64,000 nucleotides of DNA from Eledone cirrhosa (GCA_964016885.1 OZ024742.1:108872001-108936000), one strand, 5' to 3'. Counted from the stretch's first letter, positions 16,164 to 61,300 are shown. Notes: generated from the sequence alone by a model not told the origin. Numbers and translations: made by a program.

Positions 16164-16238
16164 ACTGTGATACATATTTCAATGACGACAGTGGCCACAC
16201 GATTCCGTATACCCAGTGCCATGACATCATCAGACAGC
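16164..16238 (-). ncRNA. Type I hammerhead ribozyme-like fold (PLE pseudo-LTR type)
   Basis: gctgt-CTGATGA-[imperfect long stem II]-GAAA-tatgta-TC-acagt; AATAAA follows downstream. Confidence 0.6.
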
Positions 16239-16799
16239 TTCTTATATAATAAGGTTACGTTCCCGAGGCAATCCAAATGGAAACGACAAGGGAACGGACA
16301 AGGCGTGTGTTCTTGAATCGCCTGCCGTTCCCCTGTGAGCCCCAATTTGGAATTTCCTCTGCCAGTGGCAGCTGACCGAAATCTTGGGTTCTGCTGGTCA
16401 TCATTTTGTGTGTGCGTGTGTGGGGTGATGCATGCGTGTATATATATTTACATTGATGCATGTGTGGATGTGCGTTCATGCGCGTATGTCTCTGGGTGCG
16501 TGTTTACACATGTATATTTATATTCATTTTTGTATTCTTTTGACACAATATGCACTGCATTAGTAGCTTGCATCTACCCAGAGTCTTTTAGCAACCTTTT
16601 CAAAATAAATTTTTTATAGTCTCTTCAAACATTAAACTCATACCATAATTCATGCACAATAAATCATCCTTGTATTATTATATTTACACTGTTTAGCTCT
16701 ACATCTAGCTACAGACGTGAATCTAAACATCGAGTACTCACCTGGGTAAATCTACAGTAACTTCACATTACACTCCCTCGGCCTGAACTCCCCACCCTT

Positions 16800-17450
16800 A
16801 TTCATTTAGCCTTCGACCGCCCTCCCTCCCCCCCACACACATATCCCCCACTAACATCACTAACACACTCCTCCTTTTCACCGCCCACCCCACAACTAAC
16901 AATACTAACACCCCCACCCCACACCCGACCACCCTTCCCCAACTAACAATACTAACATCCCTCCTTTCTTCACCCCCTCCCCTTATCACACGCACACACC
17001 CACCGGTACATATATACACACGCTCACACTAAACACACACCCTACTACCACCACTAACACTCACCCCACCACCCCGCAACTAAACCCCCCCCGACCCCAC
17101 CCACCCACTTACACCACCCACTCTACACGCAACTAATATCACTAACACCCCCCAACCCCACACACACGAACACACACACCCACTCTACACACCCTACCAC
17201 CACTGACCCCACTAACACCCGCATTCAACCCTTTCCCCACCACCAGTATACTAACACCCACTAACACCCCCTTCACACACTCATCCAAACACGCACACAC
17301 ACACCAGTACACTACACTCCCTCCACCGGCCCCCACACCTTTCTCTCCCCCTCCCCGCTCCACCCACACCCTTTCTCACACACACACACATCCCACTAAC
17401 ACCTCTACTAATACACACACCCCTCCTCACTCCAACTTTCACACCTACCC
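16800..17450. repeat. C/A-rich low-complexity tract (G-rich on the minus strand)
   Basis: Almost G-free + strand with degenerate cactaacac/ccccac units. Confidence 0.85.
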
Positions 17451-17878
17451 ATATCATGGCTTCACTGCGCATTTCCAATATTTTAAATATTTTTAATGCT
17501 TACACTATTTTTAATGCTTATATTATTTCTCCACACACAGACTATAACAATCATATAAAGAATTTGTCACCAGATCAACCAACCTAACACTCTTGTTTAC
17601 CTTCTTAAGTGCTTCTACTACCCGTAACTCTCTGCCACACTATATAAACAAGACGCACGTGCTTGCCACACATATAACCTTTGCACTATATAACCGCTTA
17701 TTTTCATGTTGTATTTTAACCTGTATTTTTGATGGTATCTTTTAATACGAATGTAATCTCTAAGTGTGTACTGCCACTCTAAATGCTGTAATGAATGTTG
17801 ACCCACAATATTTGCATATGTATCTGTATGTCTCTTGGGTGAAAAGGAGGTCATATAAGTGTTCATTCAATAATAAAT

Positions 17879-17925
17879 TGCTCCGAAGAATCCAAACCTC
17901 GGTTTGGAGGAAACAGTTGTAAGCA
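17879..17925 (+). ncRNA. Minimal type I hammerhead ribozyme-like fold, core U4C variant
   Basis: tgct-CCGAAGA-a-tccaaacc/ggtttgga-g-GAAA-cagttg-TA-agca, followed by (TA)n at ~17964. Confidence 0.55.
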
Positions 17926-56959: not shown

Positions 56960-58388
56960 TATATATGTATATATATATGTATATATATGTATATATATAT
57001 GTATATATATGTATATATGTATATATATGTATATATGTATATATATGTATATATGTATATATATGTATATATGTATATATATGTATATATATATATATGT
57101 ATATATATATTTATATGTATATATATGTATATATATATATGTATATATATATATGTATATATATGTATATATATATTTATATGTATATATATGTATATAT
57201 ATATATATATGTATATATATATATGTATATATGTATATATATATATGTATATATATATGTATATATATGTGTATATATATGTATATATATGTATATATAT
57301 GTATATATATATGTATATATATGTATATATATATGTATATATATATGTATATATATGTATATATATGTATATATATATGTATATATATGTATATATATAT
57401 GTATATATATGTATATATATATGTATATATATATGTATATATATGTATATATATATGTATATATATATGTATATATATGTATATATGTATATATATGTAT
57501 ATATATATATATATATGTATATATATATGTACGTATGTATATATATATATATGTATATATATATGTACGTATGTATATATATATATATATATATATATAT
57601 GTATATATATATGTACGTATGTATATATATGTACGTATGTATATATATGTACGTATGTATATATATATGTACGTATGTATATATATATGTACGTATGTAT
57701 ATATATATATGTACGTATGTATATATATATGTACGTATGTATATATATATGTACGTATGTATATATATATGTACGTATGTATATATATATGTACGTATGT
57801 ATATATATATGTACGTATGTATATATATATGTACGTATGTATATATATATGTACGTATGTATATATATATATGTACGTATGTATATATATGTACGTATGT
57901 ATATATATGTACGTATGTATATATATGTACGTATGTATATATATGTACGTATGTATATATATATATGTACGTATGTATATATATGTACGTATGTATATAT
58001 ATGTACGTATGTATATATATATATGTACGTATGTATATATATATGTACGTACGTATATATATATATGTACGTACGTATATATATATATGTACGTACGTAT
58101 ATATATATATGTACGTACGTATATATATATATATGTACGTACGTATATATATATATGTATGTACGTATATATATATATGTACGTATGCATATATATATAT
58201 GTACGTATGCATATATATATATGTACGTATGTATATATATATATATGTACGTATGTATGTATATATATATATATATATGTACGTATGTATGTATATATAT
58301 ATATGTACGTATGTATGTATATATATATATGTACGTATGTATGTATATATATATGTACGTATGTATATGTATATATATATATATATAC
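56960..58388. repeat. Interrupted (TA)n satellite block 5 with TGTACG variant
   Basis: Direct reading; atgtacgtatg units from ~57530. Confidence 0.97.
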
Positions 58389-59439
58389 CGGTGTGAGTGT
58401 TTTAAAGACGTTCAAACATTAAGTAAGTGCCAAGTCAGAACGGAGTATACGATTGTACTTCGTGAACAACAGGGAGGTAGTGATCGCGAAGTTTCGGTCA
58501 ACACTCCTTCAGAAATGTAAATAAGCGCATAAATGTCTATATTAGCAGCAGATGCAGGGTTACAAAGGAGAGAGCGGGAGTGAGATTATGTAATGTTTAT
58601 CTTCTAAATCACAAGCATGAATAGAAACAGCGACTGAAGGTTCTGAATTGCTGTATAAACATTTATTAATGGAAGAAATAAGTTGCATTTTCGGCGTTCG
58701 TATTCTTCCTTCCCCTCTTAACATTTCATCTCTTTCAAAAATAGATTGTGAAAACCAGTGGTTTCTACCACTTTCACTATTAATGTCATATTTTCTCTGA
58801 TAAATTAGTTACATTTATAAATCATATTTATTATCGCACTTAGTGTTGAATTGATGAGGCGTTTTCTGCTTTGATTATATATTTTTAAGGTTCCTAACAA
58901 TAATTCATTGATTATATTTAATCTTATATCACAGTTATATAACAATAAATCGTCTTTATATGTCGTTGTTGTCTCTTTGCTTTGTTCTGAATGAAATGAA
59001 CACGGACAATAAATTGCCAGTGGACTCCTAAGTACAGAATATATACATCTATATTAACACCGGTGAAAAACCGGTGACTCTCATACTATTCTCTCCGTTC
59101 GAAATATAGCAATTGGCTTATTGTAACCATAAACAATGTACGCATTTTATTTACATTCAAACACAATTTATGTAAATTAGAAGGCAACACGTATGTTTTC
59201 TGACATTTGATTGGTCGTAAATACATCTATAATTAGAAACTAAATAAGTTAAAGAAATAGGTGAAGGTATACATAGAATTTGTGTACGTTTAGTACAAAT
59301 TATATTATTCAAATTTTGGCTCTGAAATACTGGGCGAAAGCTGCTTATTGTGGAGAGAAACTCTGCTGATCTCCTAAACCTTGTCACAACAGCATCTGAT
59401 ATAGCGAGGCGCATCTAGGAGCGATGACTAACCTCTTGG

Positions 59440-60440
59440 AGGCTATGGTCAGAGGAGCAATTAAAGAGCTCAAATGTGGCAAGGCCACTGGGGAGAACGA
59501 CCTGGTATATTAAAAGCCTTACATAGAGAAAGTATTTTCTGGCTAACTTGCATATCCCAGGTGGCCTGGATCTCTGGAAAAGCACCTAAGCAATGGCAAT
59601 CGAGAGTGATGATCCCAATTTTCTAAAAGGGAGACTGCTCAAATTACAGAGGGATCTCTTTGTTAAGCTAAGTGTCTAGCAAAGAGATGTAGGGATATTG
59701 TCAAGTCCAAACTAGCTGATGAATAGTGTGGTTTTCATCCTGGACACAGCACAGTTGACCAAATATTGAAACCGTGGCAGGTCTCTGAGAAATCGTGGGA
59801 GTATTGCCAAGAGGTATATCCTTGTTTTGTAGAGTTTAAAAAGGCATATGACCATCTTCCATGGGTCCTATTGTGGAAGATTCTGCAGGAGTATGGGATT
59901 GATGGATAACTTCTTCTTGCCCTAGTATTTGTGTTCGAGTAAATAGTGCTAAATCAAAACCATTCAATGTGGGTGTCGGACACTGCCAAGGATACGTAAT
60001 GTCATCTTCATGAGTGATGGGAGGCAGGAGGATGAATTAAGTGCAAGAAATGCAGGAGTTGGTGCAGTAATGAGCCAGCTTCAGCATTCGGTCATCAGGG
60101 GAAGGGAGGTGGGTGTAAAAGCCAAATTTGCTAAATCCAATTTGGTATTCAAGCTAACCTTTACCTATGGTCATAAATGTTGGATGATGACCAAAAGAAT
60201 ACGATCATGAATACAAGCTGCTGAATGAGGTTTCTCTGAATTGATAGATATTACAGACATGTGTTAGAATGTTTCAGGAAAGAATTGCTGGACATATTTT
60301 ACTGTCAAAACCAACAGGCAGGAGACCCAGGAGTAGACCTTGAGCAAGCTGGTTGGATAACATCCATGGGCTGAGCTTGTTTCACGTGGAGATCCAGCCA
60401 AATCAATTGGAGAGAGTTGCATCTGATAGGACAGTGTGTG
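59440..60440 (+). mobile_element. Old, decayed RTE-like LINE fragment
   Basis: Broken motifs PIF*KGDCSNYRGISLLS, GFHPGHSTVDQI, FKKAYD and LTFTYGHKCW. Confidence 0.65.
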
Positions 60441-61255
60441 TATTACATAAGTTACTGTCATAGAACATATATAAAGGTATGTGGGTTAATCAGTGGTATA
60501 AATGAAAGGTTCCCTACATAAGCAGTAGAGGAATATAGAGGAGCATGTTTGTATGAATGGTATTTTGAAAAGGTCCTCAAGAGTTTAGATATTTTCCTGT
60601 CATAATTTCCAATATTTCTGAGCAGAAAAGTTCACAATCTTGCCTTTCCCTCTGATACAGCCTGGCATATCTTAAAATCGACCATGATAGCTCATATACT
60701 ATATTATTTTGTTACATATCCTAGATTTTCTTCACAAGCGCTGTTCATGTTGGCAGGTCGGGATTTTTGAATGAGTGGGTATGTACATATAGTCGAGTTT
60801 TTTAAGTTATGGGGGCTTCTATATATTTATGCCTATGAACATCTTCTGGGGAGCTTAAACATTTATGAACATCTTCTGGGGAGCATAAACATTTCATGTA
60901 TGATTCAGTATACAACCCCTGTCACGTATCAATCATGCTATGTCAGAGCATCAATACCTCTCATTAATTAGAACCTACCAGCTTTTGTTCCATATGCAAA
61001 TGAGCTTCATCATTTGATGTTCATAAGAATAAATATTATAAGCTTTTAGCTTATTTTCGTCTTACCATTCAAGCAAAATTAGTCCCTCTAAAGACAGCTA
61101 ACAAACCAGAAACGGCTGTTAGAGTGCTCTCCCTTGTGGTGAAATCCACCACTTCTAAAATTCATAGCAAGGCTAAAAAAATGTTTATTGACATGAACAT
61201 TTCATATATGATTCAAAATAAAATCCCAGTCATATATATATACAAATGTAAGTTT

Positions 61256-61300
61256 AATACACGTGTTTTGCTGAGGGATTAGTTCCGCAGCTCGTCAGTC
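61256..61300 (-). ncRNA. Decayed minimal hammerhead (G12A)
   Basis: CTGACGA-gctg...cagc-AAAA-cacgtg-TA with a weak stem I. It lies 3' of the PLE fragment on the same strand. Confidence 0.4.

Follow-up and report, generated by a model that had tools for sequence, protein, structure and literature searches.

Dimeric hammerhead ribozymes of Penelope-like elements (PLEs) were reportedly described by Lunse, Weinberg and Breaker in 2017. The minimal hammerheads of these retroelements combine a short stem I, a long stem II and a palindromic stem III, include a U3-A8 core variant and work as dimers; they occur as many dissimilar families per genome, mostly in single truncated copies, with opposite-strand pairs 100-700 bp apart (PMC4209133). 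The same architecture, diversity and opposed pairing are seen in the stretch analysed here (the window), 64,000 nt of the 3.0 Gb genome of Eledone cirrhosa (OZ024742.1:108872001-108936000), of which about one third is TA-rich satellite and most of the remainder retroelements. The nine type I hammerhead-like folds listed in a preliminary description of the window are all found at the coordinates and on the strands given there, and are numbered here as sites 1-9 along the window. They are true hammerhead-ribozyme motifs near the 3' ends of Penelope-type elements, with cleavage predicted, and we hold the assignment of their families to PLEs and retrozymes with high confidence. The main finding concerns the non-coding tandem element at site 8, which was probably copied into TA microsatellites from a single circular RNA that had been edited by ADAR.

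The window motifs depart from the published minimal hammerheads (PMC4209133) in a stem II of up to 107 nt, in a mismatch at 10.1-11.1 in five of the nine motifs and in the C at position 4 of site 2. Hydra-clade PLEs, which include Hydra-1_Obim of Octopus bimaculoides, are similar in their RWK-like, DKT and CxCX5C motifs, in a C-terminal GIY-YIG domain without CCHH, in (TA)n targeting, in a palindromic stem III of 8-10 nt, often with U.U at the base of stem II, and in their 5' inversions and tails (PMC8557442). The site-2 unit measures 4.19 kb, compared with mostly <3 kb for the published Hydra-clade elements, its tail is ~170 nt rather than 30-40 nt long, and the window hammerheads differ in sequence from the Hydra-1_Obim motif (PMC8557442). 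The PLE hammerheads, their diversity, the U3-A8 variant, the opposed pairs and the Hydra elements, including that of O. bimaculoides, were thus known already.

Animal non-long-terminal-repeat retrozymes are likewise built of non-coding units in tandem, each bearing a single type I hammerhead; they have a GC content below 45%, form a strongly self-paired circle and coexist with PLEs (PMC7229834; bioRxiv 10.64898/2026.07.22.740005, hereafter Li et al., 2026). Circular transcripts of such elements have been reported from coral, mussel and axolotl, and editing has been named as a possible source of the heterogeneity of the mussel circular RNA (PMC7229834). PLE mobilization, rolling-circle copying and RNA editing have each been suggested for retrozymes (PMC7229834; Li et al., 2026), which have also been proposed to be PLE derivatives (Li et al., 2026); according to Li, Clavereau and Pollet, the mechanism of their mobility is still to be worked out. 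Site 8 differs from the retrozymes described in the passages cited from these two sources, none of them from a cephalopod, in its minimal PLE-type ribozyme, its 591-nt unit and its array-wide A>G record, and also in carrying the marks of PLE insertion (two fixed 3' ends, inverted arms and TA targets). The Poseidon element of Anolis resembles the behaviour proposed here for site 8 in its two internal reverse-transcriptase (RT) starts, which yield an optional tail, in the nicking of both strands in AT-rich DNA and in ends that lie away from the cut site (Frangieh et al., 2024; PMC11167929). Unlike site 8, it is autonomous, its start sites lie close together and ribozyme cleavage is dispensable in vitro; neither a circular template nor editing is addressed in the part of that study cited here (PMC11167929). 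A literature search conducted mostly at the abstract level, with few subscription papers and with Repbase, Dfam and supplements, which may contain these families, outside its scope, returned no cephalopod retrozyme and no array-wide editing record. The ribozymes and their link to PLEs are ordinary, while the array record of site 8 is the new part, and both the array structure and the A>G signal lie beyond the view of the preliminary description.

If the proposed origin is correct, the site-8 arrays would demonstrate directly, from the genome, that animal retrozymes retrotranspose by a rolling-circle mechanism. They would also show how RNA edits can pass into heritable DNA, with adenosine-to-inosine changes written into the germ line of a heavily editing lineage. 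With thousands of young arrays, the family makes retrozyme mobility testable from genome data alone and would name exact priming sites, the cut site and the edited positions. The window holds one copy:

52068-52677, minus strand: site-8 insertion within TA satellite; it holds a single unit of the non-coding tandem element (retrozyme), 591 nt in length, and a further ~17 nt, and has a long 3' end
52313-52400, minus strand: hammerhead 8, with a U3-A8 core, G10.1-C11.1, a perfect 10-nt stem III palindrome and a predicted cut after GUC at 52318/52317

Two classes of 3' end were found in all seven families examined, with short ends lying 40-90 nt and long ends 130-245 nt beyond the predicted cut; this count is blind to ends within 25 nt of the cut and its queries favour some ends, and for site 8 it was redone without the filter. 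The site-8 comparison covers 58 insertions, 26 of them multi-match loci chosen by visual inspection among the first 100 of 5,669 matches and 32 taken from the 40 loci most similar to the window copy; it leaves out alignments of <92% identity and the internal TA/TG tract. Their 92 termini comprise 49 long ends, 42 short ends and one other, so that 91 lie at unit position ~426 or 591. The predicted cut site, at unit position 346, never coincides with an insertion end. Nearly all of the two-armed (inverted) insertions (33 of 34) have one end of each class, and (TA)n abuts every one of the 43 termini inspected (28 insertions). The arms form dispersed short arrays that contain anything from part of a unit to seven units, with variable 5' ends. 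Units differ by a mean of 0.63 nt within an array (52 pairs) compared with 2.88 nt between arrays (728 pairs), and the circular fold of the unit is strongly self-paired (z = -4.9 against 30 shuffles). The unit is also present in two sequencing runs, with one self-returning contig of 620-621 nt, a result that a tandem array in DNA would give as well. Two older, diverged relatives (L231:416-712 and L045:2787-2901) are usable as outgroups; a pattern made for the relative in L045 matched only the L045 copy.

Homogeneous arrays could also arise without an RNA circle, by insertion of linear RNA of about one unit followed by slippage, unequal crossing-over or gene conversion. The site-8 arrays do sit in unstable TA tracts, and a satellite route for retrozymes has been proposed by Li et al. 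(2026). Stepwise duplication after insertion predicts variants that cover part of an array, however, and these are nearly absent (three, compared with 81 confined to a single unit). In addition, both arms of inverted insertions are multi-unit, end at the two fixed positions and have private alleles in common (L225, L155, L228 and L229). We therefore regard expansion after insertion as improbable. If a multimeric linear template had been edited one unit at a time, the arrays should be mosaic, and mosaic arrays are also nearly absent; one circular template for each array appears rather likely.

The variants found array-wide differ in kind from those found in one unit. On the ribozyme strand, A>G accounts for 21 of the 43 array-wide sites and T>C for six (p = 3e-5 given the base counts), whereas the single-unit variants include seven A>G and 15 T>C among 81 (p = 0.66); the difference in A>G between the two classes is highly significant (Fisher p = 8e-7). 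None of the three variants covering part of an array is A>G. The 26 pattern-picked insertions taken alone give 18 of 38 array-wide compared with four of 40 single-unit. The A>G sites have no 5' G (0 of 21, compared with 27 of 119 adenosines; p = 0.002), and the most frequent of them is UAG; avoidance of a 5' G is an ADAR preference reported across animals (PMC9989829). The four-gamete test is failed by 30 of 66 pairs of recurrent A>G sites compared with two of 28 other pairs, so the recurrent A>G sites arose more than once or recombined. At L225, six A>G changes, four of them private, are present in all covering units of both arms, with five within 70 nt. Over all insertions, private variants include nine A>G and three T>C (p = 0.011). 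The likely source of the site-8 A>G changes is ADAR.

The following sequence of events would best account for these observations. A tandem copy would be transcribed, and two hammerheads, paired through their palindromic stem III, would release an RNA of unit length by cleavage; its ligation would yield a 591-nt circle. ADAR would then edit adenosines of the strongly self-paired RNA. A PLE protein with RT and GIY-YIG domains would nick both strands of (TA)n, and reverse transcription would start from two internal positions that lie 80 and 245 nt beyond the ribozyme cut. Finally, the RT would round the circle for 1-7 units per site, leaving arrays and head-to-head arms with identical edits. On this model the non-coding tandem elements likely borrow their enzymes. 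The fuller proposition, that the site-8 family is an active octopus retrozyme and that each array is the fossil of one ADAR-edited, hammerhead-made circular RNA primed by a PLE at two sites, is one that we favour with some reserve.

A single template could instead have acquired its A>G excess through an error bias of the RT or of RNA polymerase, or through subfamily structure. Several observations lean this way. The private excess hangs on one insertion (five A>G and three T>C without L225; p = 0.15), the direction of the frequent variants is set by majority polarization only, and the A>G positions are barely more paired than other adenosines (0.73 compared with 0.64). Against this, errors in the last round of reverse transcription would be confined to single units, where A>G is not in excess; the complete lack of a 5' G, the recurrence of A>G sites on different backgrounds and the cluster of five sites at L225 also speak against it. 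An origin of the A>G excess in error bias or subfamilies seems unlikely.

The three observations just cited in favour of an error bias also weigh against an edited circular template, and they are joined by others. The array-wide variants of other families show little or no A>G bias (one of 33 for site 7, six of 21 for site 2 and four of 14 for site 4/5); an absent or weak bias is expected for site 7, but the other tandem family, site 4/5, with its older copies, gives no support. The 58 insertions are a sample of several thousand and the donor loci lie outside it, so that array-wide variants may have been inherited. A comparison of the site-8 unit with the site-2 and site-6 elements, the PLE families covered, showed no homology, and no enzyme donor was found. 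The proposed RNA steps (cleavage, circle and editing) are read from genomic sequence alone, and only four of the nine window motifs have the G10.1-C11.1 pair that the published consensus contains. In published work, insertion of an anole PLE in vitro needed no ribozyme cleavage and gave no reads ending at the cut site (PMC11167929), eight of nine Xenopus retrozyme dimers did not cleave (Li et al., 2026) and minimal hammerheads showed low activity (PMC4209133); taken together, the published tests show poor cutting or a need for protein.

The folds and insertions at the remaining sites are as follows:

16140-16347, minus strand: site-1 insertion, a 5'-truncated copy of a ~1.23-kb non-coding tandem unit, with a short 3' end at (GA)n(TA)n
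16164-16238, minus strand: hammerhead 1, with a C3-G8 core, U.U at the base of stem II and a predicted cut after AUC at 16169/16168
17449-17968, plus strand: site-2 insertion, the 3' end (pseudo-long terminal repeat, pLTR) of a Hydra-type PLE that is young and has a unit of 4.19 kb; its short 3' end lies at (TA)26
17879-17925, plus strand: hammerhead 2, with a CCGAAGA core and a predicted cut after GUA at 17921/17922
18253-18543, minus strand: inverted 5' segment of the site-3 insertion
18613-18881, plus strand: site-3 insertion, with a long 3' end at (TA)11; an older family whose best copies are 84-90% alike
18662-18720, plus strand: hammerhead 3, decayed, with one stem I mismatch and C.C at the fourth stem II pair
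18901-19611, minus strand: left arm of the site-4/5 insertion, with a long 3' end at 18901 and other DNA at ~18986-19396
19498-19577, minus strand: hammerhead 4, in the left arm of the site-4/5 insertion
19610-20028, plus strand: right arm of the site-4/5 insertion, a ~480-nt non-coding tandem unit, with a short 3' end at (TA)24
19865-19944, plus strand: hammerhead 5, decayed, in the right arm of the site-4/5 insertion
20078-20271, minus strand: 3' part of the site-6 insertion, a Hydra-type PLE pLTR, with a short 3' end at (TA)24
20121-20264, minus strand: hammerhead 6, with a U3-A8 core and a 107-nt stem II
~20269-24055, minus strand: long terminal repeat (LTR) retrotransposon, bounded by a target duplication of 5 bp, that splits site 6 only a few bases to the upstream side of its hammerhead
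24056-24613, minus strand: upstream part (3' untranslated region) of the site-6 insertion, separated from the 3' part by the LTR retrotransposon
38253-38473, minus strand: site-7 insertion, a Neptune-type PLE 3' end with a ~25-nt inverted 5' piece and a long 3' end at (TA)n
38389-38426, minus strand: hammerhead 7, 38 nt, with a U3-A8 core
61256-61300, minus strand: hammerhead 9, decayed, with G12>A and a weak stem I
61374-62094, minus strand: relic of a Hydra-type PLE, lying upstream of hammerhead 9, in which 62023-61739 gives a broken match to the GIY-YIG region

The folds were compared with shuffled sequence, a check that the preliminary description had proposed. A strict descriptor (exact C3-G8 or U3-A8 core, GAAA, fully self-complementary stem III, stem I of at least 4 bp, stem II and UH) found five loci (sites 1, 4, 6, 7 and 8) in the 41.7 kb of unmasked window and none in 100 local dinucleotide shuffles. 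When one core mismatch was allowed site 2 was gained, giving six loci (shuffle mean 0.05, maximum 1, 40 shuffles); the descriptor was built after the nine sites had been viewed, and its specificity is therefore somewhat overstated. A less circular test is provided by 197 overlapping loci (729 kb) selected around the nine-site families, in which a slightly wider descriptor yielded 281 hits that fall into 31 clusters, of which 24 lie outside the queried families, compared with 0, 1 and 0 hits in three shuffles. Sites 3, 5 and 9 fail the strict descriptor because the window copies have decayed: site 3 has one stem I mismatch, site 5 an A6>C change and a change in stem III, and site 9 its G12>A change and weak stem I. 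Intact copies of the site-3 and site-5 families exist elsewhere in the genome, and the single aligned relative of site 9 keeps a CUGAAGA core with a longer stem II.

The core (C3-U4-G5-A6-N7-G8-A9 with G12-A13-A14, or the U3-A8 variant) and the UH triplet are exact in sites 1, 3, 4, 6, 7 and 8, and the core differs by one change in sites 2, 5 and 9. The C at position 4 in the CCGAAGA core of site 2 is the state of its family and not decay. Stem III forms a duplex between two molecules in all nine motifs (-2.2 to -12.9 kcal/mol) and a stable hairpin in none. The closing pair G10.1-C11.1 is present in four motifs (sites 3, 7, 8 and 9). Most folds had been described as lying close to (TA)n tracts, and this holds: (TA) runs of at least five repeats lie within 250 nt of eight of the nine sites, which are not independent of each other, compared with 17.9% of unmasked positions drawn at random.

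Hammerhead-like folds could also arise by chance in AT-rich DNA, and two results would fit such an origin. Rfam scans of three stretches covering sites 1-8 gave no match to a hammerhead model at E <= 10, and the folding z-scores of six of the nine single motifs lie above -2. In the Rfam scan of the whole window, only TA-repeat matches to microRNA models were seen among the matches listed (150 of 824). Chance is nevertheless refuted, and we give it practically no credence, given the 100 shuffles without a strict hit, the thousands of exact copies, the compensatory changes in the stems and the fixed place of the motifs near PLE 3' ends.

In stem II, a C.C mismatch in fourth position was noted by eye in sites 1, 3 and 6 and in clusters in L039, L041, L075, L086 and L193, that is, in about eight clusters from three unrelated stem I groups; L063, L070 and L134 have another mismatch there. 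The recurring mismatch possibly marks a tertiary contact.

The preliminary description had further held that the stems differ between sites yet stay complementary, and had proposed a test of stem covariation and a search for other genomic copies. Both copies and covariation were found, the latter read from compensatory changes between related families, not from R-scape, and each group offers few independent events. Among the nine sequences of the site 1/3 group, 93% of stem cells are paired, and ten cells are changed on both sides compared with 3.7 in shuffled data (none of 500 as high; relatedness was not controlled). Site 4 and L101 differ by double changes in stem I and stem II, site 8 and L045 by two pair changes in the stem III palindrome and one in stem I, and site 6 and L086 by a core swap between U3-A8 and C3-G8.

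These patterns bear on the possibility that the hammerheads persist in PLE RNA because they bind protein, or as passengers, and are rarely cut, with multimeric uncut transcripts or DNA circles as templates. The low activity of minimal hammerheads (PMC4209133) is in line with this, as are the position of the insertion 3' ends away from the cut site and the unreduced insertion of an anole PLE in vitro when its ribozyme carried catalytic mutations (PMC11167929). Yet the core, the NUH triplet and the stem III palindrome are retained over the 31 clusters despite their differing stems, and multimers edited unit by unit would give mosaic arrays, whereas no A>G variant is confined to part of an array. 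Hammerheads that are seldom cut are thus a doubtful explanation. A 7-mer common to three tails was considered as a protein-binding motif and rejected, as 726 of 1000 shuffles show equal sharing.

The nine folds belong to eight insertions of eight repeat families that end at (TA)n; nine motifs were rightly counted, but sites 4 and 5 represent opposite arms of a single insertion. Likewise, the reported clustering of folds at 16.1-20.3 kb is real, but it represents five insertions piled on TA tracts and not a functional array. The insertions display the marks of PLE-type integration, namely 5' truncation, an inverted 5' copy, an optional 3' tail and a microsatellite target. The families are diverse and multi-copy, as had been claimed. 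Exact pattern matches in the genome number 11,251 for site 7 and 5,669 for site 8, with none for reversed controls. First-look candidates, which are not copy numbers, number 3069, 1947 and 2669 for sites 1, 2 and 3, and 1467, 1254, 627 and 376 for site 4/5, site 6, site 8 and the site-9 region, respectively.

Four of the families are PLEs with coding sequence for RT and GIY-YIG, three of Hydra type (sites 2, 6 and 9) and one of Neptune type (site 7), and three are non-coding tandem units, or retrozymes (sites 1, 4/5 and 8). The family 3' ends and these coding partners bear out the link to minimal type I hammerheads of PLEs. The elements had also been called mostly protein-less, which is true of the 5'-truncated window copies but not of the families of sites 2, 6, 7 and 9, which have coding elements. 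In L091/L092, where all the motifs of site 2 were read, the frames contain RWR, DKT, YRDD and CxCX5C, and their GIY-YIG region lacks CCHH; RWR, DKT, CxCX5C and GIY-YIG without CCHH are marks of the Hydra clade, to which sites 2, 6 and 9 are assigned by motifs only. A pLTR-open reading frame-pLTR arrangement was found in two site-2 loci (4.19 and 4.18 kb), with broken frames in both. The Hydra-type GIY-YIG domain is C-terminal, has CxxC and CxH and scores below the Pfam cut-off. For site 6 a linker and endonuclease are found in L102, and the endonuclease lies 550 nt upstream of the ribozyme in several loci, while the Hydra-type relic upstream of site 9 gives weak matches only (27-46%).

The partner of site 7 is an open frame for RT and GIY-YIG of 845 amino acids in L223 and 726 in L222, colinear with the site-7 3' end. 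It has DKG, a CX4CxxC linker and CCHH, on which motifs the element is assigned to the Neptune type; its GIY-YIG domain scores above the Pfam cut-off, and RVT_1 matches have E values of 1e-6 to 2e-5. A Hydra-type endonuclease beside site 7 in L183 was rejected as a partner, being a separate insertion beyond a TA tract. No coding partner of site 3 was found within the ~550 nt followed upstream, and the coding sequence beside site 3 in L028 and L190 belongs to separate insertions beyond TA tracts.

The tandem periods are 591 nt for site 8, 472-484 nt for site 4/5 and 1228 nt for site 1, with GC fractions of 0.41, 0.30 and 0.38, respectively; sites 1 and 4/5 are known as partial tandems only. None of these units matches any of nine PLE protein pieces. 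One site-1 copy has a 172-codon frame, which a second copy lacks.

Two side observations concern these families. At L172 (minus strand, near 1500) a site-7-type ribozyme is followed by another tail, of which 32 nt at 84% are common with the site-6 tail, possibly a chimera of Neptune-type and Hydra-type families. Directly behind site 9, 60884-61250 belongs to a further repeat family, which often occurs as inverted pairs and is present twice, 4.1 kb apart, in L159; no hammerhead or frame could be assigned to it.

Elsewhere in the window, the LTR retrotransposon at 20269-24055 (minus strand) has a gag zinc knuckle and integrase domains in broken frames, and its LTRs are 95% alike. A 970-codon open frame of a long interspersed nuclear element (LINE) at 41203-44112 (plus strand) contains endonuclease, RT and a PHD finger; a 95% identical inverted partial copy lies at 55217-56958 (minus strand), and the two copies flank 11 kb of TA satellite. 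Further LINE frames occur at 2-2668 and 38435-40330. A long palindrome at 32818-33940, within TA satellite, has 297-nt and 97-nt arms that are 100% identical, and the hairpin at its centre spans 33336-33422. A portion of the palindrome recurs as a repeat in up to five loci, and no hammerhead was found in the palindrome. Terminal inverted repeats of ~250 nt (85%) around 1 kb at 25216-26741 resemble a non-autonomous DNA transposon. The stretches 13330-13925 and 9637-11328 contain a fragment of a Pif1 helicase 2B domain (Helitron-like) and two retroelement fragments of a family also present in L183. The one clear host gene of the window is a DCST1-like gene of the sneaky/DC-STAMP family at 7177-9237 (minus strand), a single intronless frame of 687 codons that is 85% identical to DCST1 of Octopus sinensis.

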